Assembly: GCF_042231085.1 (NCBI RefSeq)
Contig: NZ_CP102579.1
Origin: Corallococcus interemptor
GTDB lineage: Bacteria > Myxococcota > Myxococcia > Myxococcales > Myxococcaceae
Length of the DNA: 64,000 nt
Direction: 5' to 3' (one strand)
Program-made: the position numbers and the translations under genes
In this document: piece after piece, positions 4,171 to 49,457 of the stretch
Numbering within the stretch: the stretch's first letter is position 1
How the letters are laid out: each line of letters begins with the position of its first letter
Notes under the pieces: generated by a model
What the model was told of the DNA's origin: nothing
Database searches by the model: none
The model's input: only the letters and a program-made list of their open reading frames with translations

Positions 4171-4188
4171 GCGCGGCGCCCCTCTGCG

Positions 4189-4779
4189 TCAGGTGACGTT
4201 GCCCACGGCGGTGTCGATCTTCCCGCTGACGGCCTCGCCCTCCGCGGTGCCCTTGAGGCCCTTGGCGATCTCCGCGCAGATCTGCTGGAGCGCCGCCGGA
4301 GGGGGAATGGGCACCAGCTTGGTGCGGATGAGGCTCGAGCCCTCGGCGGAATAGCTGTACTTCTGCGAGTGCTTGGCCGTGACGGTGGTGACGTGGCTCT
4401 TGTGGCCCTTCACCAGCGTGGTGAGGATGCCCTTGTCGCGGTCCACCTTGCGGTCTCGCGTCTGGGTCGAGTCGTCCGTGGACTCGTGCATGGAGATCTC
4501 CATCTTCACTTCGATGATGGTCTCCACGAACTGGTAGAACGTGGGCGTGAAGCCGAGCAGGAGCAGCGGGTACTCGGTGGTCCCCAGCTTCACGAAGCCG
4601 GCCCCGTCCCGCACGGCGTTGCCGCTGTCGTCGATGCGGTAGCCCGCCATGAGCTGGGCGATCTTCAGCGAGGAGCTGTCCAGGGCGTACTGGGCATCCG
4701 CGATGGCGTTGCCCAGGTTGCGGACCATCTCCCCGAAGGGGACGTTGAGCAGATCCTGACCAATGGAGTTGGTAGGCAT
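4189..4779 (-). CDS. paralog-family protein F (196 aa), unknown function
   Basis: N-terminus LLNVPFGEMVRNLGNAIADAQYALD. Core GFTPTFYQFVETIIEVKMEISM. C-terminal block YSYSAEGSSLIRTKLVPIPPP. 18 nt after the upstream stop. Confidence 0.8.
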   Translation of the reverse strand: MPTNSIGQDLLNVPFGEMVRNLGNAIADAQYALDSSSLKIAQLMAGYRIDDSGNAVRDGAGFVKLGTTEYPLLLLGFTPTFYQFVETIIEVKMEISMHESTDDSTQTRDRKVDRDKGILTTLVKGHKSHVTTVTAKHSQKYSYSAEGSSLIRTKLVPIPPPAALQQICAEIAKGLKGTAEGEAVSGKIDTAVGNVT

Positions 4780-4797
4780 GGTGCGCGCTCTCCCGGG

Positions 4798-5370
4798 CTA
4801 CTTCGTGGTGGGCGTGGTGCCGGCCCTGGACGCGATGAGCGCGCGCACCCGCTCCTCGAAGAGGGCCGGCGGAGGCACCGGCACCAGCTTGGTGCGCAGC
4901 AGGCTGGAGCCCTCCACGCTGTAGTCGTACTTGCGCGTGTAGCTGGCGTCCACGGTCGTCACCACGGCCTGGGGCGCGCCGCCGCGCTTGAAGAGGCGCA
5001 GCCCGCCGGCCGTCCGCGAGGTGCTCTGCGTCGCCACCTTGCTCTCCGTGCTCTCCGTCATCTTGATGGCGATCTTCACCTCGATGATGGTGTCCACGAA
5101 CTGGTAGAAGTTGGGCGCGAAGCCCAGCTCCATCATGGACGAGGGCGTGCCCGCGAAGGACACCTTGGTGTCCACCCGGATGGGCTTGCCGGAGCCGTCG
5201 AGCTGGATGTTCCCGTCGGCGTCCCGCAGCAGCGCCTCGCCGCTCATCATCTCCGCGACGAGCATCCCGCTCTTGTCCAGCTCGAGCTGCGCCTCCGCGA
5301 TGGCGGTCGCCATCTCACGAATCATGTCCCCCATGGGGACGTTCAGCAGTTCCTGACCGACGTTGGGCAT
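4798..5370 (-). CDS. paralog-family protein E (190 aa), unknown function
   Basis: LLNVPMGDMIREMATAIAEAQLELD ... LGFAPNFYQFVDTIIEVKIAIKM ... YDYSVEGSSLLRTKLVPVPPP. Confidence 0.8.
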   Translation of the reverse strand: MPNVGQELLNVPMGDMIREMATAIAEAQLELDKSGMLVAEMMSGEALLRDADGNIQLDGSGKPIRVDTKVSFAGTPSSMMELGFAPNFYQFVDTIIEVKIAIKMTESTESKVATQSTSRTAGGLRLFKRGGAPQAVVTTVDASYTRKYDYSVEGSSLLRTKLVPVPPPALFEERVRALIASRAGTTPTTK

Positions 5371-5392
5371 GGTGTCTGGGTCCTTGCGCGCT

Positions 5393-5896
5393 TCAGGCGG
5401 AGGTATTGGTGGAGGCCGCGGGGAGCGGCGGCTGGGCGGCGATCTCGTTGAGCAACTGGTGCAGGCGCGCGGGCGGAGGCAGCGACACCAGCCGCGCGGC
5501 GATGGAGCTGGCGCCCTGCACCTCGAAGCCGTACTTGCGGCTGTACTCGGCGTTGACCGTCACGGAGAAGATGCCGGCCATGCCGCCCGTCGCGCCGCCG
5601 CCCACGGAGAACTCCGTGGACTCGCGGATGGTGAAGGTGAGCTTCGCCTCGAGCGTGGCCTCGGCGAAGGCGTAGAACGTGGGCGTGAAGCCGAGCGCGA
5701 GCAGGCTCCACAACTGCCCGTCGCCCAGGTCCACGGTGCGCTCGGACATGCGCTTGGCGATGTCCAGCGAGTTGACGTCCAGCGCGTGCTGCGCGTCCGC
5801 CACCGCGCGCCCGAGCCGCTCGATGAGCTCGGGCAGCGGCGCGTCCAGCACCGTCATCATCGCGCGCTGGCCCTGCGTGGTGTTGTTTCCGGGCAT
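5393..5896 (-). CDS. paralog-family protein D (167 aa), unknown function
   Basis: LPELIERLGRAVADAQHALD ... LGFTPTFYAFAEATLEAKLTFTI ... YGFEVQGASSIAARLVSLPPP. GGAG Shine-Dalgarno 5 nt upstream (minus strand). Confidence 0.8.
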   Translation of the reverse strand: MPGNNTTQGQRAMMTVLDAPLPELIERLGRAVADAQHALDVNSLDIAKRMSERTVDLGDGQLWSLLALGFTPTFYAFAEATLEAKLTFTIRESTEFSVGGGATGGMAGIFSVTVNAEYSRKYGFEVQGASSIAARLVSLPPPARLHQLLNEIAAQPPLPAASTNTSA

Positions 5897-5905
5897 GGGG
5901 ACTCC

Positions 5906-8002
5906 TTACGGGTACCAGCGTTCGAGGTAGTCGCCGATGGCCTGGAGGAACTGGGGCGGCGCGGGCACCGCCACCAGGCGGGCCTTGATGGTCGAGCTGC
6001 CGGACACGCTCATCTCGTACTTCACCGAAGCGTGCGCATCCACGTTGAGGGCGCGCAGCTCGCGCTCGGAGCTCTCCTCGCGGTCCGCGGACGGCTTGCC
6101 GGCGATGCGGTTGGCCGACAGCAGGAAGGCGGCGGGGTTGCTGGTGCCCAGCATGGTGCCGGAGGGGCCGGAGACGGTGACGATGTTGCCCGCGGACTGG
6201 GCCTGGAGGCCCGCGGCCAGCACGCCGGAGCTGGAGCCCGCCGTGATGGCGGCAGCCAGGTTGCGCGCCGTGTCCGCGGCCGTCACCCCCAGCGTGAACT
6301 GCCCCGGCTGCGGGGCGACGCCTGCCTCCACGGCCACCAACTGCACGTTGTCGATGACGACGGTGTCGCGCGGCTGGGGCGAGGCCGGCGGGCGGCCGTC
6401 GCCGAAGCGGCGGGCCACGCGGATGGAGCCCGCGGCGGACAGGGCCGGCGCGGTGGGCGTGCGCGCGAACAGGGTGAACAGGGCGTGGTCACCGGTGCCG
6501 TACAGGTAGACGCGGTCCCCGCGCGCGAAGGCGCCGAACGCGGTGTTGGCGTTGGCGTCGCGGATGGCGCGGGCCAGGTTGGCGGCGGTGGACTCCGCGG
6601 TGGCGCCCACCGCGAAGGTGGTGCCCTGGGACGCGGTGCCCTGGGTGAAGTCCGTGCCGCGGAAGGTGACGACGGCCGTGGTGGGCGCGTTCGCGGCGGC
6701 GCGCGTGCGCGGCACGATGCGGGCCTCCCGGTCCGTCCCCGTGGGGTCGAAGGCGGCCGTGGCCGCGCCGGTGCGGGCCACCAGCGACGCGGGCACGCCG
6801 GAGAAATGGAAGACGACGCGCCGGTTGGCCGCCAGGTCGGAGCTGCTGAAGTCGACCGTCGCGCCCATGCCCCGGGCCTTGAGCCTGCTGGCCGCCACGC
6901 CCCGCGACGTCAGCGCCCGCAGGACGAAGTCCGCGCGCCGCTGCGACAGGCGCTGGTTGTAGCCGGGGGCCGGCGGCGTGCGCTGATCCGCCCAGCCCTC
7001 CAGGTCCAGCGAGGCGGACGGGTGCTCCGCCAGCAGCGCCGCCACCGCGTCGAGGATGGCGGAGGGCTCGCGGTCCGTGCCGTAGGTGGTGGTGGGCACG
7101 TCGTGGATGTCGGTGTCGAAGTAGATGGCCCGGTTGCAGTCAGCGCCGGAGACGACGAGGAAGGCGGCCGGGTCCACCTGCTGCCCGATGTCCGCCAGCG
7201 CCGCGCCCAACGTCGCCGCGGTGCTGGTGTAGCGCGTGCCGTTGGTGGCCGGCAGCAGCAGCGCGGGCGCGGGCGTCACGCTGCCCAGCCGCGCGATGAC
7301 CAGGTTGTCGCCGGGCGCCGCCTGCGGCGAGGTCCGCACGGTGATGACCGAGCGGTTGATGGCGTAGAGGTCCGGGCGGTTGGTGCTGGCGGTGACGCCC
7401 GACTGCATCTCCCAGTCCATGAAGACGCCCTGCAGGTCCCCCGCGGCCTGGTTCGTCCAGACGGAGTTGTTGCGCAGGGCCACGAGCAGCTCCTGCGCCG
7501 TCTCCCACAGCGTGTCCTGGCGGGTGACCGGCAGGCCGCTGCTGTTGGGGCCCACGCCGCCGTCCAGCGCGTAGCTGGTGGTGCCCACCGTGAGGTGGCC
7601 CGGCGCGTTGGCCACCAACGCCAGACAGGCGTAGGGGGGAATGCCCTCGCCGTCCTGCACCGTGAGGGTGGCGCTGCCGCTGGCGGAGGACGTCTCGAGG
7701 CTGTACTCACTCGACTCGTCCTCGTTGTCGTAGTTGAAGTTGGCGCCCACGTCGATGGTGGTCGAGTAGTAGACGTTGAGGTTCACCTCCAGGTCGGCGT
7801 ACTGGAAGTGGTAGAAGGCCGGCCGCAACCCCAGGGCCAGCAGGTTCTGCGTCATGCCCGGCAGGACGGTCTGCCCCATGCGCAGCGTCTGATCCACGCT
7901 GTTGGTGTCCAGCTTGGTCTGGGCCTCGGCGATGGCGAGCCCCATGTCCCGGATGAAGTCGGAGATGTTGAGATCCGCGAGGATCTTCCCTGCTTTCGGC
8001 AT
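5906..8002 (-). CDS. paralog-family protein C (698 aa): family domain split by a ~500-aa Ala/Thr/Gly-rich insertion containing an OmpA-like peptidoglycan-binding domain
   Basis: N-terminus ILADLNISDFIRDMGLAIAEAQTKLD...LGLRPAFYHFQYADLEVNLNVYY. Internal NQRLSQRRADFVLRALTSRGVAASRLKARGMGAT...ANRRVVF is the OmpA C-terminal motif. C-terminus YEMSVSGSSTIKARLVAVPAPP. Confidence 0.8.
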   Translation of the reverse strand: MPKAGKILADLNISDFIRDMGLAIAEAQTKLDTNSVDQTLRMGQTVLPGMTQNLLALGLRPAFYHFQYADLEVNLNVYYSTTIDVGANFNYDNEDESSEYSLETSSASGSATLTVQDGEGIPPYACLALVANAPGHLTVGTTSYALDGGVGPNSSGLPVTRQDTLWETAQELLVALRNNSVWTNQAAGDLQGVFMDWEMQSGVTASTNRPDLYAINRSVITVRTSPQAAPGDNLVIARLGSVTPAPALLLPATNGTRYTSTAATLGAALADIGQQVDPAAFLVVSGADCNRAIYFDTDIHDVPTTTYGTDREPSAILDAVAALLAEHPSASLDLEGWADQRTPPAPGYNQRLSQRRADFVLRALTSRGVAASRLKARGMGATVDFSSSDLAANRRVVFHFSGVPASLVARTGAATAAFDPTGTDREARIVPRTRAAANAPTTAVVTFRGTDFTQGTASQGTTFAVGATAESTAANLARAIRDANANTAFGAFARGDRVYLYGTGDHALFTLFARTPTAPALSAAGSIRVARRFGDGRPPASPQPRDTVVIDNVQLVAVEAGVAPQPGQFTLGVTAADTARNLAAAITAGSSSGVLAAGLQAQSAGNIVTVSGPSGTMLGTSNPAAFLLSANRIAGKPSADREESSERELRALNVDAHASVKYEMSVSGSSTIKARLVAVPAPPQFLQAIGDYLERWYP

Positions 8003-34850: not shown

Positions 34851-35023
34851 TCCTTCGTTACTCTTGGCAGTGCCTACGCCGCCCGTTTCCGGTGCATCCG
34901 GAAGCGAGGCGGCGTTTTCGCGTGGGTGTCAATCACCCTCACGGGGGATGCAACCGCAGCGAGGAGTGCGCCAGAACCTGGGTGCCAGGTCGTCCCACCC
35001 ATGACGACCCGGGGGGCACCTCC

Positions 35024-38000
35024 ATGAATCCGCACGACTCGGTCCTGCTGAAAGAGCTTCAGCGGCAACGCACCCGGTTGCTGGATTTGAGCGCAACCAA
35101 CCGACTCCTCAACTTCAAGCACACGGCCCGGACGTCGCTGCGCATTGTGGATGAACTGCCAGGTGTCGTCTTCGAGCGCCTGAGCAACCACCGCGCGCTC
35201 ACGTTCCTTCCGGTGATGCCACCGGAGCAAGCCTCCGAGGAAGAGGAGGACTTCGATCCCGCCGCCGCGACGGTGGTGTTTTCGATGACGACGGAGGAGG
35301 CCCCAAGCAAGGACGCTCGGCAGAAGCTGCTGCTTCAACAGGCGAAGAAGCTGGGCATCGATACCCGGTATGAGCTGCCCAAGGCGGTCCCGGCAGAGAG
35401 CGGCAGCAATCCTCGCAAGCACCAGGATCGCCACCTCCAGACGTTGTACTTCCCGGAGGATCTGGAGAGCCACCTGCACCGACTCCAGGGCCTCGCGCAA
35501 ACGGCCATCCAGGAGACCGGGGCCAATCTGCTCCACTTCGCCTTCGGGTTCCTGCGCTGGTACGAGTCCGGCGACACGCGGCAGGAGAAGCCTCGCAGCG
35601 CTCCACTCGTGCTCATGCCGGTGAGCCTCAAACGCGGCCAAGCCCACCCGGAGACGCAGGTCCACTCCTACGAGGTGGACTACAATGAAGGCGAGTCCAT
35701 CGACTCGAACCTCACGCTCCAGGAGAAGCTGCGGCAGGAGTTCGGCATCACGCTGCCGGCCTTCTCCGCGGAGGAGGGGCTGGAGGCGTACTTCGACAAG
35801 GTGACGGCGCTGCTCAAAGGCCTGCGCCCTGGCTGGAGCCTGGAGCGGCAGGTGACCCTGACGCTCCTGTCCTTCGGGCGGCTCCTGATGTGGCGGGACC
35901 TGGAGCCCAGCCGCTGGCCTCAGAACAGTCCCATGCTGGCGAACCCGCTCGTCCGGACGCTGATGGGAGGACAGGCGGAGGCGAACGAACCTGGCGGAGG
36001 TGGCGGGGGCAGCCGGGAGCGCCGGAGCGAGGTCTACGATTTGGACTCGCAGGAGGTCAATCCGCCGCCACTCATCACGGACGCGGACAGCAGCCAGCAC
36101 AGCGTGTTGGTGGACGTGCTCCGGGGCGAGAATCTGGTGGTGCAAGGGCCGCCCGGCACCGGGAAATCACAGACCATCACCAACCTCATTGGCGCGGCGT
36201 TGGCGGCGGGCAAGACCGTGCTGTTCGTCACGCAGAAGTTGGCGGCGTTGGAGGTCGTCTCACGCCGCCTCCAGCATGCGGGGCTCGGCGAGTTCTGCCT
36301 GGAGTTGCACAGCCACAAGACCCAGAAACAGCAGTTCATGGAGGACCTGCGTCGCCGACTCAACCTGGATGCGAGCGCGACCGATCCCCGCCCGCTCACC
36401 GAACAGGTCTCGAACGCGGCGGGCATCCTGCGCGCGCATACCGAGCGAATGCACAAGCCGTTCGGGACACTCGGCATGTCACCGCATGACGTGTTCTGGA
36501 AGGTCAGTCGCGCGGAATCGGAACTGGGAGACGCGGTCGTGGAGCTGGAAGGCCTCCGCTTCGAGGGCGCCGAAGGCATGTCTACCCATGCGCTATCGGA
36601 GGTTCGCGACGCGGTTCGGAGTCTCGCGGCGCAGCTTGGGGATGTTCGCCGCGTCGCGCCCATCCTCAGTGCCCACCCCTGGGCGGGTGTGACGAACGAT
36701 GCGCTGACCGACAAGGACCGTCAGACACTCGTTCAGCGTATCGCCACCTGGGAGGAGTCCGCGCTGCTCCTGGAGAAGGCGCTGGCGGCCTTCACCGTCC
36801 GCACGGGCGTCACGCCCAGATCGAGCGCACTCGCGGTGGATGCGCTGATCTCCAACGTCCGAGTCCTGCCACGGCTTCCAGAAGGGACTCCCGCGACGCT
36901 GGTCCCTGCCCTGCTCGATTCCACGCAGAGAGAGGGATTACGAGCCCTGCTTGATGCCATTGAAGCGGTCCAGGCCCGGTGGGCGGGGTTGGAGGCAGGC
37001 TGGCGTGCCCAGGAAGACCTGACCGCGTCCGCGCTGCGCGGCGCGGAAGCCGTCCTCGACATGGCCCTGCGTCTGCTCTCGCCTGACACCACGCTCGTGA
37101 CACTGACGCGCGCGCATGAAGCGGTGGAGGCCGCTGCTCGAATCCTGGCGCAGGCTCGCCGGTTCGCGGCCGACGTGGCTTCCCGCCTGGAAGTCGACGT
37201 CACGCGCTGGACGCCCCAGCAACTCCAGTCTTTCGCCCGCGTCGTCGAGGCGATGGCCGCCCTGAACGACACCACTTTGGAGTGGCGGGACCCGTGCTGG
37301 ATCGAACGCGAAGCCGAGGAGACACTTCGGAAGGCTGACAGCACCTGCACGGAATTGAAAGAGCAGGCACGGGCGCTCGCGGTGCGCTTCATGCCCGAAC
37401 TCGTTCCTCCCCTCGCGACGCTCAAGTCCCATGCGGTTGCGGTTTCAACCGCGCCATTCATCCCCTGGCTCTCGAGCGCATGGCGTGCCGCGCGGCGGGA
37501 CTTCCAGGCCATGGCACATGGCGTACGTCCAACAAGGCCCGTACTGGTTCAGGGCTACAACGACCTGCTGGCTCATTACGCGGCACGGGAGCGGTTCCAG
37601 GAGGACGCGACCTTGAAAGCGACCCTTGGCGCCCGCTTCCAGGAAGTCGAGACACGCTTCGACCGAATCCTTTCGTGGTTGGACGCATACCGGACCATCG
37701 ACGCATTGATCCTCCCCATGGGTGAGCGAGGTTTGGGGCTACGCCGAGCAGTGTTGGAGCGTTCCCCGAGCCATTGGCGCGAGATCCTGGCGATGGTCCG
37801 CGCGAAGAGCGAAGAACTGTCCCAGGTCCGAGACGTAAGCACTTTCGTGCAAGAAGCCTCGACGCGCATGGGGCTGCCGAGCGCCCCCTGGAACACCGAG
37901 TCCTGCGGAAAGGCCCAGGACAGCCTCGACGCCCTGCTGAAGCACCTGAGCCAGGTCCTGAACTGGGCACGGAAGGGAGATGCCCCGCCGTCCCTGACCC

Positions 38001-40222
38001 TCTCCCAACTCCAGGGACAACTGCGCCGGGTGCGTGAAGCGTGCGAAGCCGCAGACCGACTGGAAGCGCACGCTTCCGCGGCGACCCTGCCAGGGGTGGC
38101 CTACCAGGGGCGGAAAACCTCCCTAGCGGGTCCCCGAAGCATCCTCCGACATGTTGATGACCTCCTCGCGGCGCCGCTCCCTGAAGGGCTGGCGGAGTGG
38201 CTGCTACGAGAGGACACGCCACGAAGGCACGCGGACCTGCTCGCCATCACGAACGAATTGGAGACAGCCCTCAGTGCCTACAGACAGTCCGCAACCCAAG
38301 CCCGGGAGCTGGGAAGGATGGCCCAGGGCACCTGGGAGGATCTCGCCGCCGAGAAGCCGCTCCAATCGACGGTCTTGCGACTGCGCCAGGCCCGAAGCCA
38401 GTCCGCGACGCTTCCAGCCTGGTGCGCGTATCAACGGCAGCGGCGTGCCGTCGCGCGAGCGCGGAGCACCGCTGGGTTCCTGGAGCGCGTCGACACACGT
38501 CCGGGCCTGGAGCCGGAACGGCTGGTCGCGGCCTTCGACGCTGTCTTCTTCCGCTCCCTGGCGGAAGCCATCCTGCGAGACCAACCCGAGCTCGACCAGT
38601 TCACGGGCGCCGTTCATGCCTCCCAGAGAGAGGAGTTCGCACGCCTGGACACGCATTGCATCGAAAGGCAGGGCCGATACCTGGCACGTCAACTCAGCCA
38701 GCGTCCGGTTCCTCCGGGTGTGTCCTCGGCGAAAGTGGCGGGTATGACGGAGACCCATCTTCTGCGGCACGAGTTGGGAAAGAAGCAGCGGCACCTCCCC
38801 ATTCGTGAACTGGTCGCCCGTGCCGGCAGTGCGCTCCAGACGCTGATGCCGTGTTTCATGATGGGTCCGCAGTCGGTCGCCCAGTACCTGCCCGCCGGCC
38901 AGTTGACCTTCGACCTGGTCGTGATGGACGAGGCCAGCCAGATGCGTCCCGAAGATGCGCTGGGCGCCATCGCGCGAGGGAGACAGTTGGTGGTAGTGGG
39001 CGACCCGGAGCAACTCCCTCCCACCAGCTTCTTCGCCCAGATGGAACAGGAGGACACAGAGTCCAACGACGAGGCGGGAGACGAGGCTCAGGGCCCGTCC
39101 TTCCTGGAGGATTCAGAGAGCATCCTCACGGCGGCGGCGGAGCGGTTCCCCATGCGCATGCTGCGCTGGCATTACCGTTCACGTCACCCCTCGCTCATCG
39201 CCTTCAGCAATCGTGAGTTCTACAACGGCGACCTCATCACCTTCCCTGCACCGGGTGAGCAACTGGAAGGTTTGGGGCTGCGCTTCCACAAAGTGGACGG
39301 AGGACTGTACGAGTCCAACCGAAACGTCCCCGAAGCCCGCGAAGTGCTGGCGAAGGTGAAGGAGCACGCGCGGACACGTCCTGAGCAGAGCCTGTTGGTC
39401 GTCACGCTGAATTCGAAGCAGCGGGATCTCATCGACGACCTGGTGACTGCCGAGGAGAAGAACGACGCGACCCTCCGAGCCTTCCTGGCGAAGTGGGAGA
39501 AGTCACCCATGCCCTTCGACGTGAAGAACCTGGAGAACGTGCAAGGCGACGAGCGCGACGCCATCTTCGTGTCGGTCACGTTCGGTCCCGACAAGAACGA
39601 GCGCTTCCGGATGAACTTCGGGCCCATCAACCAGGCGGACGGATACCGCCGGTTGAACGTCCTCTTCACGAGGGCGCGGTGTGCACTGACGGTGTTCGCG
39701 TCCTTCGACCCGTCACAGCTCAAGGTCCAGGAGAGCAGTCCCCGTGGGATGCGCGTCCTGCAACGGTACCTGTCCGAAGCCAAGGGAGAGAAGGTGGCGC
39801 ACGGCGTGGGGAGCGGCCGTCCACCGGATTCCGACTTCGAAATCGCCGTCGCGAAGGCGCTCGCGGCGCGGGGCTTCGAGGTGGTTCCGCAGGTAGGCGT
39901 TGCGGGCTACTTCATCGACATGGCCCTCCGGCATCCCCAGCAACCAGGCCGGTACATCCTCGGTGTCGAGTGTGACGGCGAGCGGTACCACTCGTCGCGT
40001 TCCGCGCGGGACCGGGACCGGCTCCGGGACCAGGTGTTGAAGGGCCTGGGGTGGAAGCTTCACCGCATCTGGTCCACGGACTGGTTCCGCTCGCCTTCAG
40101 AAGAGGTCGCCCGGATCGTCGCGCGCGTCGAGGAGCTCCTTCGGGAGGAGGCGGCTGAGCTGCCAGCCGTCGTGCGTGAAGAGTCCCCGGTGGAGCATCA
40201 GATGCGGGCCGTCAGCGCCTGA
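35024..40222 (+). CDS. giant DUF4011 - SF1 (Upf1-like AAA_11/AAA_12) helicase - C-terminal Vsr/DUF559-like restriction-endonuclease-fold protein (1732 aa)
   Basis: N-terminus LLKELQRQRTRLLDLSATNRLLNFKHTARTSLRIVDELP (DUF4011-like). Walker A VVQGPPGTGKSQTITNLIG. C-terminal helicase ...YRRLNVLFTRARCALTVFAS. Terminal ...YFIDMAL...ILGVECDGERYHSSRSARDRDRLRDQVLKGLGWKLHRIWSTDWF. Confidence 0.9.
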   Translation: MNPHDSVLLKELQRQRTRLLDLSATNRLLNFKHTARTSLRIVDELPGVVFERLSNHRALTFLPVMPPEQASEEEEDFDPAAATVVFSMTTEEAPSKDARQKLLLQQAKKLGIDTRYELPKAVPAESGSNPRKHQDRHLQTLYFPEDLESHLHRLQGLAQTAIQETGANLLHFAFGFLRWYESGDTRQEKPRSAPLVLMPVSLKRGQAHPETQVHSYEVDYNEGESIDSNLTLQEKLRQEFGITLPAFSAEEGLEAYFDKVTALLKGLRPGWSLERQVTLTLLSFGRLLMWRDLEPSRWPQNSPMLANPLVRTLMGGQAEANEPGGGGGGSRERRSEVYDLDSQEVNPPPLITDADSSQHSVLVDVLRGENLVVQGPPGTGKSQTITNLIGAALAAGKTVLFVTQKLAALEVVSRRLQHAGLGEFCLELHSHKTQKQQFMEDLRRRLNLDASATDPRPLTEQVSNAAGILRAHTERMHKPFGTLGMSPHDVFWKVSRAESELGDAVVELEGLRFEGAEGMSTHALSEVRDAVRSLAAQLGDVRRVAPILSAHPWAGVTNDALTDKDRQTLVQRIATWEESALLLEKALAAFTVRTGVTPRSSALAVDALISNVRVLPRLPEGTPATLVPALLDSTQREGLRALLDAIEAVQARWAGLEAGWRAQEDLTASALRGAEAVLDMALRLLSPDTTLVTLTRAHEAVEAAARILAQARRFAADVASRLEVDVTRWTPQQLQSFARVVEAMAALNDTTLEWRDPCWIEREAEETLRKADSTCTELKEQARALAVRFMPELVPPLATLKSHAVAVSTAPFIPWLSSAWRAARRDFQAMAHGVRPTRPVLVQGYNDLLAHYAARERFQEDATLKATLGARFQEVETRFDRILSWLDAYRTIDALILPMGERGLGLRRAVLERSPSHWREILAMVRAKSEELSQVRDVSTFVQEASTRMGLPSAPWNTESCGKAQDSLDALLKHLSQVLNWARKGDAPPSLTLSQLQGQLRRVREACEAADRLEAHASAATLPGVAYQGRKTSLAGPRSILRHVDDLLAAPLPEGLAEWLLREDTPRRHADLLAITNELETALSAYRQSATQARELGRMAQGTWEDLAAEKPLQSTVLRLRQARSQSATLPAWCAYQRQRRAVARARSTAGFLERVDTRPGLEPERLVAAFDAVFFRSLAEAILRDQPELDQFTGAVHASQREEFARLDTHCIERQGRYLARQLSQRPVPPGVSSAKVAGMTETHLLRHELGKKQRHLPIRELVARAGSALQTLMPCFMMGPQSVAQYLPAGQLTFDLVVMDEASQMRPEDALGAIARGRQLVVVGDPEQLPPTSFFAQMEQEDTESNDEAGDEAQGPSFLEDSESILTAAAERFPMRMLRWHYRSRHPSLIAFSNREFYNGDLITFPAPGEQLEGLGLRFHKVDGGLYESNRNVPEAREVLAKVKEHARTRPEQSLLVVTLNSKQRDLIDDLVTAEEKNDATLRAFLAKWEKSPMPFDVKNLENVQGDERDAIFVSVTFGPDKNERFRMNFGPINQADGYRRLNVLFTRARCALTVFASFDPSQLKVQESSPRGMRVLQRYLSEAKGEKVAHGVGSGRPPDSDFEIAVAKALAARGFEVVPQVGVAGYFIDMALRHPQQPGRYILGVECDGERYHSSRSARDRDRLRDQVLKGLGWKLHRIWSTDWFRSPSEEVARIVARVEELLREEAAELPAVVREESPVEHQMRAVSA

Positions 40223-40224
40223 AC

Positions 40225-40230
40225 AGGAGA
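40225..40230 (+). promoter_or_regulatory. AGGAGA Shine-Dalgarno 5 nt upstream of the second gene of the operon (14-nt intergenic gap)
   Basis: Seen directly; supports translational coupling with the helicase gene. Confidence 0.5.
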
Positions 40231-40235
40231 CATCC

Positions 40236-41801
40236 ATGACAACGATCATCGCCATTGGCCTGGGCATTCTGGGCCTGTTGCTCCTTGGCTTGTGGCTGCG
40301 GACACAGAGCCGGCTCAAAGCCGTCCAGGAACGATTCAAGCCCATCCTGGACCTGGAGGCCGAACGGCGCCGGGTCGCGGAGGAGTTGACGCGGGCCCGC
40401 ACGGACGCGACCACCGCGATGGCCGCGGAACAGAAGCGGGTCCAGGACGATTTGGCGAAGGCACGGAGCGAAGCGGACAGTGCACTGGCGGCGGAGCGGA
40501 AGCGGGTAGAGACCGAGCTTGCCCGGGCAAAAGCGGACGTTGAGCAGGCCATCGCCGCTGAGCAGGGCCGAGCGAAAGCGGAGTTGAACCGGCTCCGCGA
40601 AGAGACGAGCCGGACGACGCAAAGCGCGACGCGCGCCATGGAGGAGGCAGAAGCCCGTCGAAAGCAGGCGAACGCCGAGCGGACCAACCTGGAGTCAGGC
40701 ATCGCCCGCCTGAGGGCCGAGTTGAAGGCACTGGAGGAAGAGGAGGTCCTGCTCTCCTTCGGCTTCTACAAGCCGGTGTACGCGCTGGCGTCGGTCAAGG
40801 AGTACGAGGACCGGCTGGAGAAGATCCGCGACGCGCAGAAGCAGATGCTGAAAAACAAGGAAGCCGCCACGTGCTCCATTCAGTGGGAAGTGAATGGAAG
40901 CAAGGCGGAAGGCAAGAAGCAGATTGAGCGGACCTTGAAGCTGATGCTCCGGGCCTTCAATGGCGAGGCGGACGCGTGTGTAGCGAAGGTGTCCTACAAG
41001 AACGTCAAGGCCATGGAGACGCGCATCGAGAAGGCAGCCGCCGCCATCAATGGTCTCGCGGAGATCCAGCAGTGCGTCATCGCCAGGCGCTACGTCAAGC
41101 TCAAGGTCGAGGAGCTGATGCTCGCGTACGAGTACGAGGAGAAGGTGCAGCAGGAGCGTGACGAGCAGCGCCGGATCCGGGAGCAGATGCGTGAGGAGGA
41201 AGCCGCCCAACGCGAGTTGGAGAAGGCGAAGCTGGAAGCGGAGCGCGAAGCGAAGCGCGATGCAGAAGCGCTGGCCAAGGCGCGGGCGGACTACGAGCAG
41301 GCGAAGGGCTCGGAGCAGCAGAAGCTGATGGAGCGCATCGCGGAGCTGGAGCGCCGTGTGGCAGAAGACATGGAGAAGCAGCGCGCCATCTCCCAGGCAC
41401 AGCTCACGCGCACCGGGCACGTCTACGTCATCTCCAATATTGGTTCCTTCGGGGAGGGCGTGTTCAAGCTGGGGATGACCCGACGATTGGTCCCCCAGGA
41501 CCGCATCGACGAACTTGGAGATGCCTCGGTGCCGTTCGAGTTCGATGTCCACGCCATCATCCGGACCTCGGACGCCCCTGCCCTGGAGAACGCCCTGCAC
41601 AAGGCCTTCGCGAACCGGCGAGTCAACCGCATCAATGAGCGAAAGGAGTTCTTCCGCGTCGGCCTGGATGAGATCGCGGAGGCAGTCCGCAAGCATCACG
41701 GTGAGTTTGAACTGACCCGGGCGGCCGAGGCTGCGGAATACCGGAAGACATTGGCACTCCAAGAGGAGGAACAAGGTCGACCAAGTGAGCGAGCCGCATG
41801 A
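40236..41801 (+). CDS. N-terminal TM helix + long coiled coil + DUF4041 + T5orf172/MUG113 (GIY-YIG-like) domain protein
   Basis: TM IIAIGLGILGLLLLGLWL. Heptad-rich AEQKRVQDDLAKARSEAD... C-terminus GHVYVISNIGSFGEGVFKLGMTRR...DRIDELGDASVPFEFDVHAII...FANRRVNRINERKEFFRV. Confidence 0.85.
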   Translation: MTTIIAIGLGILGLLLLGLWLRTQSRLKAVQERFKPILDLEAERRRVAEELTRARTDATTAMAAEQKRVQDDLAKARSEADSALAAERKRVETELARAKADVEQAIAAEQGRAKAELNRLREETSRTTQSATRAMEEAEARRKQANAERTNLESGIARLRAELKALEEEEVLLSFGFYKPVYALASVKEYEDRLEKIRDAQKQMLKNKEAATCSIQWEVNGSKAEGKKQIERTLKLMLRAFNGEADACVAKVSYKNVKAMETRIEKAAAAINGLAEIQQCVIARRYVKLKVEELMLAYEYEEKVQQERDEQRRIREQMREEEAAQRELEKAKLEAEREAKRDAEALAKARADYEQAKGSEQQKLMERIAELERRVAEDMEKQRAISQAQLTRTGHVYVISNIGSFGEGVFKLGMTRRLVPQDRIDELGDASVPFEFDVHAIIRTSDAPALENALHKAFANRRVNRINERKEFFRVGLDEIAEAVRKHHGEFELTRAAEAAEYRKTLALQEEEQGRPSERAA

Positions 41802-41840
41802 ATTAGGCCCCGCCTGCGGTTCTGATAGCGTTCGCCCTCG

Positions 41841-43568
41841 ATGAGTTCCTATTCGTTCCTGCATCCCAAGGATGCTCTCCCCAACGCTGTCATCACTGCC
41901 GCCAAAAGCCGGAAAATCGCGTTTCTGGTCGGTTCCCCCTTGTCGACGCAGGAACGAGCCGACGCCCCCCAGGTGCCTGGGGTAGAGGCGATGCTGGATC
42001 TCATCCGCGAGCACGTCCCGACCGGATTCAAGGCGAGATTCGACACGGAGCGCGAGCACACCAAAGAGAACAGATACCAATGGGCCATGCATTTCGTGCA
42101 AGGCCTTGAGGACAAGAAAGTCTCCGAGAAGGTTGTTCGAGAGGCTGTGCTTCGCGCACGGGTGGACCGCCAACGCGATGGAGTAGCGACTGACGACGAA
42201 CTGGATCTGGATTATGGCGGATGGGCCTTACCTCCGGCGACGGAGCATCTCGGAAGATTGCTGGTGGAGAGAGCCGATACGTTTGGCCCCGTCTTGACCA
42301 CGAATTTTGATCCCCTCATCTCAGCATCGGTGAAGGTGGCTGGCGGTGATTTCCATCGCACGATCGTGACTCACGACAGCCCGTTCGGGCAGACGGTTCC
42401 TTCCTCTTCCAAATCCACGCACATCATCCACCTTCACGGCTACTGGCATGACTCGCCTACGTTGCACACTGGCATCCAGCTTGGTCGCGAGCGCAAACTC
42501 GTCTCTGCGGAGCTGATCCAGATCCTTCAAAGCCACACACTTGTCGTTATCGGATACGGCGGATGGGACGATGTCTTCACCCAGACACTCGCGGCGATTG
42601 ACGTCGACAGACACAAGGATGTCGACATCCTCTGGGGTTTCTACGAGAAGAATGACGCTGTAATCGAGGCCTGCAATCCGACGCTCTTCAGCAGGGTTGC
42701 CAATTTACGAGGCAACAAAGGGCTTCGTTGTTATGGCGGAATCGATTGCCACAAATTCTTCCCTGAACTGCGTCAACACTTTGGCGCATCCGTTGCCCCG
42801 CAGTCGCCCCCTCCAAGCACAGTCCGACAGCCACCGTCGCCATCCATCCCAATCGCCTCGGCCACCAGAGCCCCTGGGCCGGCGACCTCGCCCCACTCAA
42901 GTGCGGCGAAGCCACCCGAGCCTGTGCCTTCCGCTTCGGATCGTTCCGTTTCCCGGTCCGCTCCGAAGACGGACGGCACAGGCAGCCCTTCGAAATCAGG
43001 CTCCAAGAGAATCCTGCTGTTTGCTGCTGCCGCGCTGATTGCTGGCGGCGTGGCAGCGGTCTGGCCATCCCCGAGCAAAAGCGTCAACAATGACGTCTTT
43101 GTCGTTCAGACTCCGCGCAATCTGAGACCTGTCCAGCCGCAGCCCCCGACGGCTGCTCCGGTCCCGGCACTCGCGAGCACGCTCAGAAACGTTCGCCAGC
43201 AGCATCAGGTCGTCGCCGCTTCGGACGCCGAGCGTGGGGCTCGCGTCTCGCAGCTTCCCAGGGGACGCTACGCGTTTGTACCGATGAGCACCGTTCCCAC
43301 CTACAGCGCGGACACACCCATCTATGGCCCCATCCAGGAGGGGATTGAGCTTCATCGCGCGCTCTCGGATGGATCCCTGTACCTCGTGGGCTACGCGGAT
43401 GCCCCAACCATCACGGCCCTGGGGTATCCGAACCCTGCGCCCATCGTCATCACGCCCACGCCCAGCAACAGAAGGGCGCAGGTCGCGAGCATTCCTGTGA
43501 CTCGGATGGTCACCGCTGAAGTTCGCATGGACAAAGGCACCCGCGTGTTGGTTCTCCACCTCAACTAA
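41841..43568 (+). CDS. SIR2-like (SIR2_2 / DHS-like NAD-binding) domain protein with central TM helix and C-terminal extracytoplasmic domain
   Basis: IAFLVGSPLS; TTNFDPLI; HIIHLHGYWHD; VVIGYGGWDD. Pro/Ser-rich linker, then TM ILLFAAAALIAGGVAAVW. Visibly lower GC. Confidence 0.8.
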   Translation: MSSYSFLHPKDALPNAVITAAKSRKIAFLVGSPLSTQERADAPQVPGVEAMLDLIREHVPTGFKARFDTEREHTKENRYQWAMHFVQGLEDKKVSEKVVREAVLRARVDRQRDGVATDDELDLDYGGWALPPATEHLGRLLVERADTFGPVLTTNFDPLISASVKVAGGDFHRTIVTHDSPFGQTVPSSSKSTHIIHLHGYWHDSPTLHTGIQLGRERKLVSAELIQILQSHTLVVIGYGGWDDVFTQTLAAIDVDRHKDVDILWGFYEKNDAVIEACNPTLFSRVANLRGNKGLRCYGGIDCHKFFPELRQHFGASVAPQSPPPSTVRQPPSPSIPIASATRAPGPATSPHSSAAKPPEPVPSASDRSVSRSAPKTDGTGSPSKSGSKRILLFAAAALIAGGVAAVWPSPSKSVNNDVFVVQTPRNLRPVQPQPPTAAPVPALASTLRNVRQQHQVVAASDAERGARVSQLPRGRYAFVPMSTVPTYSADTPIYGPIQEGIELHRALSDGSLYLVGYADAPTITALGYPNPAPIVITPTPSNRRAQVASIPVTRMVTAEVRMDKGTRVLVLHLN

Positions 43569-43574
43569 CATCCA

Positions 43575-44234
43575 ATGACATTCAACAACCGAATTCTTCT
43601 TGGGCTGACGTCGATTCTCTTGCTAGCAGGCTGTGGGCCCGAAGACTCAAGCTCAGGCCCCATCACGGAGAACCCGCCACTCGAAGAAATCTGTACTGCA
43701 GCGAATTGTGCAGGCTGCTGCGATCCGACCACGAACCAGTGCGTCGAAGTTCGTACCAACGACGCGTGCGGTGTTACCGGCACCAAATGCTCGAAGTGCG
43801 CGACCGGGACCATCTGCCATCCGTCACAGCAACAGTGCTACACCCCCACCATTCGCACGAAGATCCAGCCCCTGCGCGCCACGATCGCTCCGCAGGATCC
43901 TGCTGACAACAGTGACTGGGACGTAGATGGCTCGCCGCCGGATGTCGTGGTCAAGCTGTCCTGTCCCAACGCACAGCCTGCGCCCCCTTCGGAGGAAGTT
44001 GAAAGCTTCACCCCTACGTGGACGCAGGGGGCATGCGACGTCCTGAGTACCGATCTGCTTTCGGCCCCCATCCAGTTCACCGTCATTGACGTTGACACCC
44101 TCTTTGACGACCCGATTGCGTCTGCGCAGTATCAGATGACCCGAGCCGACATTGACCGTGGCGTCGTGGAGTTCGCGAGTTCCGGTGCGTTGCTCTCCTT
44201 GGCCCTCCAGATCACCACATACTACGCCGAATAG
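43575..44234 (+). CDS. Cys-rich secreted lipoprotein (paralog of 48303..48923)
   Basis: 7 nt after the SIR2 stop. Lipobox LLAGCGP. CTAANCAGCCDPTTNQCV...CSKCATGTIC. DWDVDGSPPDVVVKLSCPN. Confidence 0.7.
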   Translation: MTFNNRILLGLTSILLLAGCGPEDSSSGPITENPPLEEICTAANCAGCCDPTTNQCVEVRTNDACGVTGTKCSKCATGTICHPSQQQCYTPTIRTKIQPLRATIAPQDPADNSDWDVDGSPPDVVVKLSCPNAQPAPPSEEVESFTPTWTQGACDVLSTDLLSAPIQFTVIDVDTLFDDPIASAQYQMTRADIDRGVVEFASSGALLSLALQITTYYAE

Positions 44235-45258
44235 ACGGACACCTCGGCCCGCCGCCAGCGTTGTTGGATGCTGGCGGCCATGTTCTTGCGGAGGTTTGCC
44301 ATCCAGCGCTGACAAATCGACACCCCTGAGCGTCCCCACACATTCTTGCTTTGATCCAAGCCAAGAGCCCACATGAGGCTGGAGGCAGCCTCGTACCGCA
44401 GCTCATCCGGGGCCTCGAGTCGTAAGCGCACCGCTGCCTCAAAGTCTGGATCCAGGAGGAGCGCGAGGATTTCCGCATCCACCGCGGGGCTCATCTCGAC
44501 CGCTGCTTCCACATGCATCAGGATTTCCTTCCTGTCCAACCATCGGAGCGCACGCATACCCGGGTCGAGCAGGATGGCATCCACGAACGATGGGTACCCG
44601 CCATGCTCCCGGTAATAGCTCACGTCCGCATTGCCCAGCCCCACCCGCCCATAAGTACGAGGCCGATCCATGCGAACACCCGCGACGCACGCTTCCTCCA
44701 TGTCACAGAAGGACAACTCCGCGCCTCGGAGATCAGCGCAGCGCAGGTCCGCCTTCATCAACGTCGCTGCGGTCAAACGGGCGCCCTGAAGTCGGCGCGA
44801 CGGAATGAGCCGTGAACCAGGTTTGAAGCCGTGAGGACTGCCCCTTCCAAGGAAGCATCCTCCCAGCACGTGCCCATCGCGACGCAAGCCATCAGGCTGG
44901 CGCGCTCCATGCGCGCCCAGGTCAGCGAGGCGCCAGACAACGTGGTGAAGTCGAGCCGCGCCTCGTTGAGCCCGCAGTCATCCAGGCGGGCGCCATCGAG
45001 CCGAACATGGACGAACTCCGCGCCCGGTAGCTCTTCCTGAGTGAGGTCGATGCCTCGGAGATCCCCCACGTGGGGTCCCAATGCATCTGCTCCCGGAAAG
45101 CCCTTGAGGACTTCACGCCAGGGTCCTTGAAATCCCGAGGCGATCAAGCGCTCGCGCCGGCGCTGACCATCGGGTGTGAGCCAGCGTTCTGCCAGGTCGG
45201 ATCGCATGACCGGGCTATAACATCCAGAACCAAAGGCATTCGATGAACCTCCACGCAT
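44222..45258 (-). pseudogene. pentapeptide-repeat protein gene, apparently disrupted by a frameshift near 44800 (two overlapping ORFs 44773..45258 and 44222..44887)
   Basis: Pentapeptide repeats run to the very C-terminus of the upstream ORF (...EDASL EGAVL TASNL VHGSF RRADF). They resume in the other frame (RRLQG ARLTA ATLMK ADLRC ADLRG AELSF). Confidence 0.45.
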
Positions 45259-48302: not shown

Positions 48303-48923
48303 ATGAAAGTCCTCGGCGGTTGGATGTTCATCCTGATGTGCGCGCTGTGGCTCCCCGCCTGCGGTCCCTATGACTGCACCCCGGAGAACTGCGCGGACGG
48401 GTGCTGCTCCTCGTTCAACGAGTGCATCTCGTTCCGGAGCGACTCGGAATGCGGCCCCGATGGCAGCGTCTGTGAACCCTGCGCGGAGGGCAGCGTCTGC
48501 CGGCTCGACCAGCACACCTGCTACGTGGGCGTGATGCGCACCTTCATCCAGCCCCGGTACGCCACCATCGCGGACGCCGACCCGGACACGGGCGAGGACT
48601 GGGACTCCGACGGCTCCCCGCCGGACGTCGTCGTGGAGATGAACTGCCCCTCCGCTCCCGAACGCACCCGCACCGAGGAAAGCGAGAGCTGGGATCCCGA
48701 ATGGCGCACCGGCGGCTGCCAGATCATCACCTCCAACCTGCTGCGCTACCCGCTCGAAATCTCCATCTTCGACAACGACAACTACACCTTCGATGACGAG
48801 TTCGGCGGCCTCTCCTACCAGGTCACCCACGGCGACCTGAACCGGGGCCGCATCGAGCTCTCCATCCCGCCCATCGTGAAGACGCTCGTCTTCGAACTGA
48901 GCCACAACTACGCGCCGCGCTGA
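48303..48923 (+). CDS. Cys-rich secreted lipoprotein (paralog of 43575..44234)
   Basis: LPACGPYDC. CTPENCADGCCSSFNEC...CEPCAEGSVC. DWDSDGSPPDVVVEMNCPS. Confidence 0.7.
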   Translation: MKVLGGWMFILMCALWLPACGPYDCTPENCADGCCSSFNECISFRSDSECGPDGSVCEPCAEGSVCRLDQHTCYVGVMRTFIQPRYATIADADPDTGEDWDSDGSPPDVVVEMNCPSAPERTRTEESESWDPEWRTGGCQIITSNLLRYPLEISIFDNDNYTFDDEFGGLSYQVTHGDLNRGRIELSIPPIVKTLVFELSHNYAPR

Positions 48924-48971: not shown

Positions 48972-49457
48972 ATGCGCGCCCACCTCCTGCCGCTCATGGT
49001 CCTGTTCTCCACCGCCTGCGGCCCCTCCTCCTCCGTGGACGAGGGCCTCGGCGTCGTCCAGGGCATCGACACGTCCGAGACCGGCATCACCGCCTTCGTT
49101 CGCTCGGGCCAGTACACCTCCTGGCTCGCGGAGCCCTCGGTCCACGACACACGCGCGCCCCACGGCAGCAAGGTCCGCGTGTTCTTCAACGACGTCGTCG
49201 CGCGTTCGCTCCGCGACGGCAACGCCACGCATCCCGTGGGCAGCATCCTGGTGAAGGAGCTCTTCGAGGACGACGGGAAGACGCTCCGGGGCCACGCGCT
49301 GGACGTGAAGGTCGCGGAAGGCCCCGGCAAGGACACCTGGCTCTTCTACGAGGGCTTCGGCCCCGACTACACCCGGAACTACTACGGCCGCGCCCACTCG
49401 ACCTGTCACGGCTGCCACTCCGACGGGGTGGACTACGTCACCTCCCCCCTGCCGTGA
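48972..49457 (+). CDS. small lipoprotein with C-terminal CXXCH haem-binding motif (cytochrome P460-like?)
   Basis: Lipobox LFSTACG. ...HSTCHGCHSDGVDY contains CHGCH. Confidence 0.55.
   Translation: MRAHLLPLMVLFSTACGPSSSVDEGLGVVQGIDTSETGITAFVRSGQYTSWLAEPSVHDTRAPHGSKVRVFFNDVVARSLRDGNATHPVGSILVKELFEDDGKTLRGHALDVKVAEGPGKDTWLFYEGFGPDYTRNYYGRAHSTCHGCHSDGVDYVTSPLP

Follow-up and report, generated by a model that had tools for sequence, protein, structure and literature searches.

A predicted transmembrane SIR2 protein and its lipoprotein partner in Corallococcus interemptor: a candidate envelope-spanning immune module

Almost all of the known SIR2, TIR and PNP defence effectors are triggered by cues from within the cytoplasm (for example nucleic acids, nucleotide signals or proteins of the phage), and the detection of infection at the level of the envelope is understood for very few systems, of which Zorya is the best studied. 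Here we report on a gene pair located in a 64,000-nucleotide stretch of Corallococcus interemptor DNA (NCBI RefSeq assembly GCF_042231085.1, contig NZ_CP102579.1), the whole of which was analysed and is referred to as the window. The first gene encodes a protein in which a SIR2 domain is followed by a single predicted transmembrane (TM) helix and a C-terminal domain (the C-domain) which would lie on the other side of the membrane, and the second gene encodes a predicted lipoprotein; we refer to these proteins as the receptor and the lipoprotein, respectively. The reading that we favour, and to which we would give an even chance, is that the pair is an envelope-spanning two-gene immune module made up of a single-pass outside-in receptor and a co-receptor lipoprotein.

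Described systems and their relation to the locus

The receptor shares membership of the SIR2 superfamily, and an expected output of NAD+ depletion on activation, with ThsA, DSR1/DSR2, SIR2-HerA, SIR2-APAZ/pAgo (SPARSA) and KomC, but these are soluble and work with other partners or sensors (SLOG, a large helical domain, HerA or pAgo), and have neither a TM-ectodomain arrangement nor a lipoprotein. When compared with PADLOC-DB v2.0.0, the receptor matched only the SIR2 cores of the pAgo, Aga and PDC-S65 models (E of at least 1e-8), with the 'pAgo' and 'Aga_SIR2' matches spanning only residues 143–270, and no family in this database was matched by the lipoprotein. Thoeris ThsA was rejected as an assignment because the receptor has no SLOG or Macro domain and no PADLOC Thoeris match, and has a PD-Lambda-1-like gene and the lipoprotein gene as neighbours rather than a TIR gene. 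The DSR1/DSR2 proteins are soluble, ~1000 amino acids (aa) long and have a helical sensor, whereas the receptor has 575 aa and a TM helix; DSR2 aligns only at profile positions 152–239 with E = 0.003, and there was no PADLOC DSR match. SIR2-HerA and SIR2-APAZ/pAgo (SPARSA) were also rejected, as no HerA or short pAgo gene is found within 34.9–47 kb of the window, as was an Avs-like SIR2-STAND system, as the receptor has no NTPase domain. It should be noted that SIR2-STAND proteins nonetheless provide the closest SIR2 sequence relatives, and that in these too SIR2 is the N-terminal effector placed before a sensing or oligomerising module. The difference is that the receptor has a linker, a TM helix and a 130-aa domain instead, plus a lipoprotein gene, and that we propose periplasmic rather than cytoplasmic sensing.

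A further comparison is provided by FAM118B, which lowers cellular NAD only upon filament formation (PMC12700824). The receptor and FAM118B have Asn, His and Asp NAD-site residues in common, and filament-dependent NAD processing would fit activation by clustering, but FAM118B, a soluble vertebrate protein, lacks both the TM helix and the ectodomain and resembles the receptor in the SIR2 core only. ThsA, an immune sirtuin, is also reported to act as a filament.

In its proposed mode of action, the pair comes nearest to envelope-coupled defence, for which there are precedents in the Myxococcus anti-sigma factor DdvA (PMC11506125) and in Zorya (ZorAB), an inner-membrane complex which monitors the envelope and signals to cytoplasmic effectors (PMC11946911). 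The likeness to Zorya is one of concept only, namely the coupling of envelope monitoring to cytoplasmic effectors: there is no homology and no PADLOC Zorya match. Zorya is built as a motor-like, multi-pass complex which is driven by protons and brings in nucleases; the receptor is a predicted single-pass protein carrying its own effector. Parallels among single-pass outside-in sensors with a lipoprotein or periplasmic partner include DdvA, which is a transmembrane protein, RcsF (the lipoprotein of the Rcs phosphorelay; PMC11709261) and the pair of QseG and QseE (PMC6075780). The topology is common to them and the receptor, with a cytoplasmic output, one TM helix and a domain in the periplasm, assisted by a lipoprotein of the outer membrane. 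In DdvA, Rcs and QseE, however, the output is transcription or a phosphorelay and not a nucleotide-degrading enzyme, and the periplasmic domain of the receptor has no relation to theirs, with no match in Pfam or the PDB; nor is there homology to any of these systems. By analogy, the TIR-bearing members of the receptor family described below match the three-part layout of Toll-like receptors. Toll-like receptors differ from this family in having the TIR domain at the C-terminus and an ectodomain composed of leucine-rich repeats. The freely readable literature searched gave no account of a membrane-spanning SIR2 or TIR protein paired with a lipoprotein, nor of a bacterial C2 lipoprotein module of this kind; what is known are the effector classes (SIR2, TIR and PNP), and what is new is the candidate trans-envelope sensing module.

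The receptor and the lipoprotein

The receptor gene and the parts of its product are as follows.

41841–43568 (+): receptor gene, an ATG-to-TGA open reading frame (ORF) encoding 575 aa, with a SIR2_2 domain, linker, TM helix, linker and C-terminal domain
41841–42785 (+): cytoplasmic SIR2_2-type domain, residues 1–315 (Pfam PF13289), with the predicted NAD-site residues N155, H199 and D244 intact
42786–43010 (+): Ser/Pro-rich linker, residues 316–390, presumably disordered and cytoplasmic, with KSGSKR at its C-terminal end (from composition; unconserved in the alignment)
43011–43064 (+): single predicted TM helix, residues 391–408, ILLFAAAALIAGGVAAVW, Ala/Gly-rich (from hydropathy, conserved position and flanking charges)
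43065–43175 (+): Pro-rich linker, residues 409–445, predicted on the far side of the membrane (length and sequence variable among homologues)
43176–43565 (+): C-terminal alpha/beta domain, residues 446–575, ~130 aa, probably periplasmic (AlphaFold2 model; outside all described families)

This agrees with most of what had been proposed in the first-pass annotation, which described a SIR2_2-type N-terminal domain, a Ser/Pro-rich linker, one TM helix and a domain across the membrane. All of the motifs that it quoted were recovered (GSPLS at residues 31–35, TTNFD at 153–157, HLHGYW at 197–202 and GYGGWDD at 238–244), and Pfam SIR2_2 (PF13289) was matched at residues 151–253 with 31.2 bits, above the gathering cut-off of 24.5 bits for this hidden Markov model (HMM). 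The linker was confirmed at residues 316–390, with 18 Ser and 17 Pro among its 75 residues, and the TM helix as the sole strongly hydrophobic stretch (by hydropathy, positional conservation and the positive-inside rule), so that the layout of a cytoplasmic SIR2 domain, one TM helix and a domain across the membrane is upheld by Pfam, hydropathy and charge bias for what is a predicted topology. Two points need to be modified. The C-terminal part does have a length close to the ~170 aa given earlier (167 aa), but ~37 aa of this is Pro-rich linker and the folded domain is ~130 aa; and while the single protein first described is real, the functional unit is a two-gene operon which includes the lipoprotein gene.

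The receptor is not restricted to the window. A C. coralloides protein with 98% identity carries the annotation 'SIR2 family protein', and among the matches listed, homologues were found with E = 0 in Corallococcus and full-length ones down to 32% identity in metagenomes; PF13289 was present in 120/120 of the receptor homologues listed. Two antisense ORFs at 40695–42173 and 42996–43571 (both on the minus strand) were rejected as shadow ORFs of a GC-rich gene on the basis of the codon-position GC pattern.

Relatives of the SIR2 domain in the PDB were found using a 15-sequence family profile, as a search with the domain as a single sequence gave no match. The best solved relative of the profile was human FAM118B with E = 9.4e-11 (PDB 9r0p and 9r3e for FAM118B/FAM118A), and weaker matches were obtained for the SPARSA-type Sir2, KomC, DSR2 and the SIR2 of SIR2-HerA. 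In the HMMER alignment, N155 (in TTNFD), H199 (in HLHG) and D244 (in GWDD) align with N163, H206 and D255 of FAM118B, which are the NAD-site residues of that protein (PMC12700824). The Asp is specific to enzymes of the FAM118 type, and all three residues are invariant in our two family alignments (A1 and A5). From these alignments, the SIR2 domain looks catalytically competent and of the immune type.

Outside the TM-bearing clade, the nearest relatives share 38–40% identity over ~320 aa, and in these SIR2 is the N-terminal effector of STAND NTPases. Fusions of this sort (NB-ARC or nSTAND5, with or without TPR) account for ~50/120 of the homologues listed, with nSTAND_NTPase5 confirmed in one of them (P0023). 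By comparison, the linker, TM helix and C-domain of the receptor would occupy the slot taken by the STAND sensor-oligomeriser. We also note two proteins (P0014 and P0034) with a SIR2-linker-TM arrangement and the helix at a matching position, in which the C-terminal domain is ~105 aa long and unrelated (a weak DUF4829 match). These suggest that the ectodomain may also be swappable.

The TM assignment was based on hydropathy, positional conservation and the positive-inside rule. The segment ILLFAAAALIAGGVAAVW at residues 391–408 has a mean Kyte-Doolittle value of 2.15 over a 19-mer, compared with 1.41 for the next best in the receptor, and the Hessa-scale sum is −1.2 kcal/mol over 18 residues, compared with +7.6 for the best 19-residue window elsewhere. 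An equivalent peak is found at ~380–396 in every full-length homologue despite the diverging sequence, and a hydrophobic segment precedes the C-domain at a conserved position in homologues of every effector class (see below). The flanking Lys and Arg residues number four on the N side and one on the C side of the helix in the receptor, and this bias is repeated in most of the effector-fused homologues; the gap between the TM helix and the C-domain in these proteins is 28–78 residues. No N-terminal signal peptide was found in the receptor sequence, which with one helix and the charge bias gives it the sequence features of a bitopic N-in/C-out inner-membrane protein. Since an NAD-consuming enzyme must be cytoplasmic and the receptor crosses the membrane with only one predicted helix, the 167 residues at its C-terminus would be periplasmic, and we infer an N-in/C-out topology from the sequence.

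The C-domain of the receptor is a well-defined fold that, as modelled, belongs to no described family. The AlphaFold2 model, produced from 8 sequences, is of mixed alpha/beta type, with a mean predicted local distance difference test score (pLDDT) of 93.4 and a predicted template modelling score (pTM) of 0.87. The domain is kept from Corallococcus through to metagenomic proteins of 22–33% identity, with R7, V12, P28, G30, F34, E58, H60, R61, G72, P107 and R110 invariant (domain numbering). There was no match to it in Pfam, NCBIfam or the PDB (the last by sequence profile), and the model had no structural match in the PDB or BFVD, with nothing returned by Foldseek from BFVD at E <= 0.001. A C-domain profile searched exhaustively against 1.84 billion cluster representatives identified 503 at E <= 1e-3, of which 80 were at E <= 1e-10. 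A word-index search with the C-domain alone was empty, but this missed even the near-identical C. coralloides protein and reflects a limit of the method rather than absence.

Some members of the family are organised differently. Three exported proteins (P0132, P0165 and P0199) have two to three tandem copies of the C-domain behind a signal peptide or lipobox and no recognisable enzyme domain. Hundreds of distant stand-alone C-domain homologues (P0160–P0274, e.g. P0181, P0188 and P0200; loci L018–L020) share the motif LRxxHxVR...EEG...LPxGVYGF. In one of these loci (L019), the gene after the stand-alone C-domain gene encodes an exported CxxCH protein, and an HTH_37 regulator gene is divergent from the C-domain gene.

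Two features directly follow the receptor gene.

43575–44234 (+): partner lipoprotein gene encoding 219 aa, with the start codon 7 nt after the receptor stop codon
44251–44278 (+): terminator-like hairpin of 12 bp with 8 G-C pairs, 17 nt after the lipoprotein stop codon (a pattern match from a consensus scan, with a weak T-tract)

The hairpin probably ends the operon. The lipoprotein begins with the N-terminus MTFNNRILLGLTSILLLAG followed by C20, giving a signal peptide with the lipobox LAG/C20 (consensus [LVI][ASTVI][GAS]C) in which Cys20 is invariant in 7 homologues. A Cys-rich module at residues 40–88, which we read as disulfide-rich, contains a further 10 invariant Cys; residues 130 and 154 are also invariant Cys, and there are two invariant Asp clusters, WDxDxSxPD and DxDxxxDD (alignment A3). 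The lipobox, together with 12 invariant Cys beyond the lipidated one, means that the lipoprotein must be exported. Pfam matches were sub-threshold only (LPAM_1 with E = 0.01, and C2 with E = 0.058 and 14.1 bits compared with the 22 bits required), and the model points to a C2-like beta-sandwich at residues ~92–219, for which the Pfam C2 match stays below threshold. The canonical Ca2+-ligand aspartates of the C2 fold all appear to be present in the sequence. Unlike the eukaryotic C2 domains (cPLA2, PKC, synaptotagmin and perforin), this domain would be exported, lipid-anchored and placed behind a 10-Cys module, with putative Ca2+/lipid binding.

The link between the two genes is found in both directions. 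The lipoprotein gene lies directly downstream of the receptor gene in 8/8 loci reached through the receptor protein for which downstream DNA was available (L001, L002, L021, L022, L025, L026, L027 and L029), and a C-domain gene lies directly upstream in 8/8 full-length lipoprotein loci found through the lipoprotein in GTDB genomes. In the window the two genes are 7 nt apart, whereas in one locus (L002) they overlap by 4 nt.

The window contains a second member of the lipoprotein family, a stand-alone paralogue at 48303–48923 (+) with 37% identity, a matching Cys pattern and the WDSDGSPPDVVV motif, and with no receptor gene upstream (tblastn, locus L004 12733–13341). The gene that follows it, at 48972–49457 (+), encodes another lipoprotein, which has a CxxCH motif and matches Cytochrome_P460 weakly. 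In C. sicarius (L006) and C. praedator (L007), the paralogue and CxxCH lipoprotein genes directly follow the first lipoprotein gene, and because both adjoin it there, the window genome seems to carry a ~4-kb insertion at 44.2–48.3 kb which includes pentapeptide-repeat, beta-lactamase-family, GST and HxlR genes. The pentapeptide-repeat ORFs at 44773–45258 and 44222–44887 (−) overlap in different frames and are convergent with the lipoprotein gene, and could represent either two genes or a single gene with a frameshift.

Enzyme exchange and genomic context

The C-domain and TM helix are not always joined to SIR2. A census of the 150 best of the 503 C-domain clusters identified the following N-terminal domains.

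SIR2: 7 clusters
PNP_UDP_1: 7 clusters, one also with EAD5
TIR_2: 6 clusters
FAD-type Rossmann: 4 clusters
Metallophos: 2 clusters

A hydrophobic segment is located ahead of the C-domain in nearly all of the effector-fused clusters, and the lipoprotein gene accompanies different enzymes. It directly follows a PNP_UDP_1-TM-C-domain gene in L008 and an FAD/NAD(P)-type Rossmann-TM-C-domain gene in L009 (5448–7928), and in L011, from an uncultured deltaproteobacterium metagenome-assembled genome, it follows a split TIR-TM-C-domain gene, of which the TIR_2 ORF (6625–7074) and the TM-C-domain ORF (6788–7870) overlap in different frames, which could be due to either a frameshift or an assembly error. 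The exchange of enzymes can be recent, as judged from the sequences of otherwise similar modules: the lipoproteins of L027 (PNP) and L011 (TIR) are 77% identical and the C-domains 50%, and those of L026 (TIR) and L027 (PNP) are 63% and 55% identical, respectively. The exchange of SIR2, TIR and PNP domains on a module that itself stays constant is what immune or conflict systems usually show.

It should be noted that PNP-type effectors are ATP nucleosidases in defence (bioRxiv 10.1101/2023.01.24.525353). One PNP-TM-C-domain protein (P0154) has an N-terminal EAD5, described in Pfam as 'Effector-associated domain 5'. The Rossmann domain found at the effector position in P0138, P0141, P0142 and P0150 is ~460 aa long and these proteins are annotated as 'FAD-dependent oxidoreductase'. 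To our knowledge, enzymes of this type have not been described as defence effectors.

Upstream of the receptor gene in the window there are two defence-type genes.

34892–40222 (+): Hhe / PDC-S37-like giant helicase-nuclease of 1776 aa, with DUF4011, SF1 helicase and REase_MTES_1575 (PADLOC PDC-S37 1266 bits, Hhe 944 bits)
40176–41801 (+): PD-Lambda-1-like protein with DUF4041 and T5orf172 (PADLOC PD-Lambda-1 E = 2.7e-153), ending 39 nt before the receptor gene

The Hhe-like and PD-Lambda-1-like ORFs overlap by 47 nt, and the order of Hhe, PD-Lambda-1, receptor and lipoprotein genes is kept in C. sicarius (L006) and C. praedator (L007). In another locus (L005), a PDC-M51A-like radical-SAM gene and a transposase are found downstream of the module.

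The G+C content at third codon positions (GC3) of the module is 0.62–0.76 in every locus, compared with mostly 0.8–0.97 for the neighbouring genes. In the window, GC3 is 0.69–0.70 for the receptor and lipoprotein genes, 0.80–0.82 for the Hhe-like and PD-Lambda-1-like genes, and 0.92–0.99 for core genes, and G+C is ~0.58–0.67 across 34.9–47 kb, compared with 69.7% for the whole window. This GC3 contrast suggests lateral movement of the module. No tRNA gene is present within the 64-kb window, and a scan of metagenome contigs with the lipoprotein identified one short locus.

In some loci the module adjoins pairs of genes of a different kind. In L008, a predicted DUF2380 lipoprotein and a Gmx_para_CXXCG protein are encoded at 4102–5622 (−), and in L022, a pair of like size and arrangement is encoded at 3041–4256 (+), for which there was no Pfam match and in which the first protein has a WHH-like motif. 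There are hints that these neighbouring pairs are of toxin/immunity type.

Alternative explanations and a possible mechanism

Our reading of the pair as an immune module is based on the domain anatomy, the catalytic residues, the conserved hydrophobic helix, the operon linkage, the swapping of effectors and the defence-island context in Corallococcus, all of which were computed directly. The idea of signalling across the membrane, already raised in the first-pass annotation, appears to be strengthened by this comparative evidence, namely the constant TM helix and C-domain, the lipoprotein partner and the defence neighbours. A number of observations weigh against such a module. Defence neighbours are found only in Corallococcus, with housekeeping or unknown neighbours in L001, L002, L008–L011, L022 and L025–L029; the loci of named origin are all from Myxococcota or close relatives; and the module was absent from the viral contigs and plasmids scanned with the lipoprotein and from the phages scanned with the C-domain. 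The lipoprotein model is moderately confident (pLDDT 64.5 from a 5-sequence alignment), and the paralogue at 48303–48923 suggests that the lipoprotein family may also work without a receptor. Many of the distant C-domain homologues are 130–150 aa long, and extending their ORFs upstream reveals neither a signal peptide nor a TM helix; the small C-domain forms which do have an N-terminal TM helix bear Lys and Arg on the C side, which would make the C-domain cytoplasmic there. Because such non-exported and cytoplasmic-type homologues exist, the C-domain is not intrinsically periplasmic, and the claim that this fold is a dedicated periplasmic sensor is weakened.

The restriction of named loci to the Myxococcota and their relatives, and the lack of phage, plasmid or viral-contig copies in the collections scanned, would also fit the use of the same architecture in myxobacterial cell–cell conflict or kin discrimination, in which the lipoprotein would be shared or probed in outer-membrane exchange or predator–prey contact, and detection of a non-self or toxic envelope event would lead the receptor to kill the cell or halt it. 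Outer-membrane lipoproteins are exchange cargo, and SitA lipoprotein toxins are reported to travel in this way (PMC5562445, PMC8546572). The pair of DUF2380-lipoprotein and Gmx_para_CXXCG genes in L008 is typical of myxobacterial paralogous families, the identity of both the receptor and the lipoprotein falls quickly within a single genus (from 98% to 47%), and the EAD5 'effector-associated domain' is found on one PNP member. We consider this explanation unlikely, however, as the lipoprotein has no toxin-like domain and a predicted C2-like fold instead, the SIR2/TIR/PNP set is typical of anti-phage abortive infection, Hhe-like and PD-Lambda-1-like genes are found beside the pair in three Corallococcus species, and no traA/traB or sitI-like genes were seen adjoining the module. 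The exchange of enzymes bears on whether the TM helix and C-domain might merely anchor and oligomerise the enzyme, with a cytoplasmic trigger (for example a phage protein or nucleotide signal) acting on SIR2 and the lipoprotein serving either as a brake, in the manner of an antitoxin, or as a partner in structure or assembly, and not as a sensor. Five unrelated enzymes share the TM helix, C-domain and lipoprotein, and a common cytoplasmic trigger would need to act on unrelated folds, whereas the part that stays constant is the extracytoplasmic one. There is also no conserved third (cytoplasmic) gene in these loci. This makes a simple anchor quite improbable in our view, even though a cytoplasmic cue is what normally activates the soluble SIR2, TIR and PNP effectors of defence, many stand-alone members of the C-domain family seem to be cytoplasmic, and no ligand-binding fold was recognised in the C-domain.

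A non-lethal role, with SIR2 acting as a deacylase or ADP-ribosyltransferase which tunes envelope physiology to a periplasmic cue, would be in keeping with canonical sirtuins, which are deacylases, with the pairing of lipoproteins and inner-membrane sensors in envelope stress (RcsF/Rcs, PMC11709261; QseG/QseE, PMC6075780), and with the housekeeping neighbours seen at many loci. The domain is nevertheless of SIR2_2 type and not a deacylase sirtuin, with no canonical sirtuin structure matched by the profile and FAM118B and defence NADases nearest to it; its replacement by TIR, PNP or metallophosphoesterase fits interchangeable nucleotide-degrading effectors and not one regulatory chemistry; and the atypical GC3 and patchy distribution of the module speak against housekeeping, all of which makes such a role very unlikely. 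A further alternative, that the hydrophobic stretch does not span the membrane, that the whole protein is cytoplasmic and that the lipoprotein gene is functionally unrelated, draws on the close Corallococcus orthologues, in which the segment is Ala/Gly-rich and contains Pro, with a Hessa sum of +3.6 to +3.8 kcal/mol. We find it hardly credible, given that no other stretch of the receptor forms a hydrophobic peak or comes near the segment in hydrophobicity, that it is bordered on both sides by low-complexity linkers, that its position is kept while the sequence changes, that most homologues are strongly hydrophobic there, with Hessa sums of ~0 or below in P0012, P0135, P0136, P0138, P0142, P0145 and P0191, and that the lipoprotein is linked in 8/8 independently found loci and across five effector types.

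Returning to the immune module that we favour, we infer a contact between the C-domain and the lipoprotein, activation by clustering, an envelope trigger, NADase activity and an anti-phage role. In the resting state, the receptor would be dispersed in the membrane with its SIR2 domain inactive, while the C2-like lipoprotein would monitor some property of the membrane or envelope and the periplasmic C-domain would read the state of the lipoprotein. An envelope event, most likely phage adsorption, genome injection or membrane damage, might then alter the contact between the two, upon which receptors could cluster via the Ala/Gly-rich TM helix and the ectodomains, and the SIR2 domains assemble into an active oligomer or filament. 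NAD+ would be degraded, and the infected cell would arrest or die before phage release. We suggest activation by clustering because related immune sirtuins (FAM118B and ThsA) have been reported as filaments, and because a single TM helix passes on proximity more easily than conformation.

Tentatively, and with rather less than an even chance, the pair might prove to be the founding example of bacterial single-pass immune receptors in the style of Toll-like receptors. Such receptors would combine a sensor and a co-receptor lipoprotein that binds lipid on the outside with a death effector on the inside, for which TIR, SIR2 and PNP would be interchangeable, and they would detect phage or a breach of the envelope from the periplasm before cytoplasmic entry and respond by clustering-driven nucleotide depletion. 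This analysis defines two uncharacterised families, the 130-aa domain with ~500 cluster representatives and an exported, Cys-rich, bacterial C2-like lipoprotein. Were the proposed role to be true, the pair would provide a compact and tractable model of outside-in immune signalling, in which a periplasmic domain and a lipoprotein are wired to a nucleotide-degrading enzyme, and the TIR-bearing members of the family would show an ectodomain-TM-TIR layout in prokaryotes.

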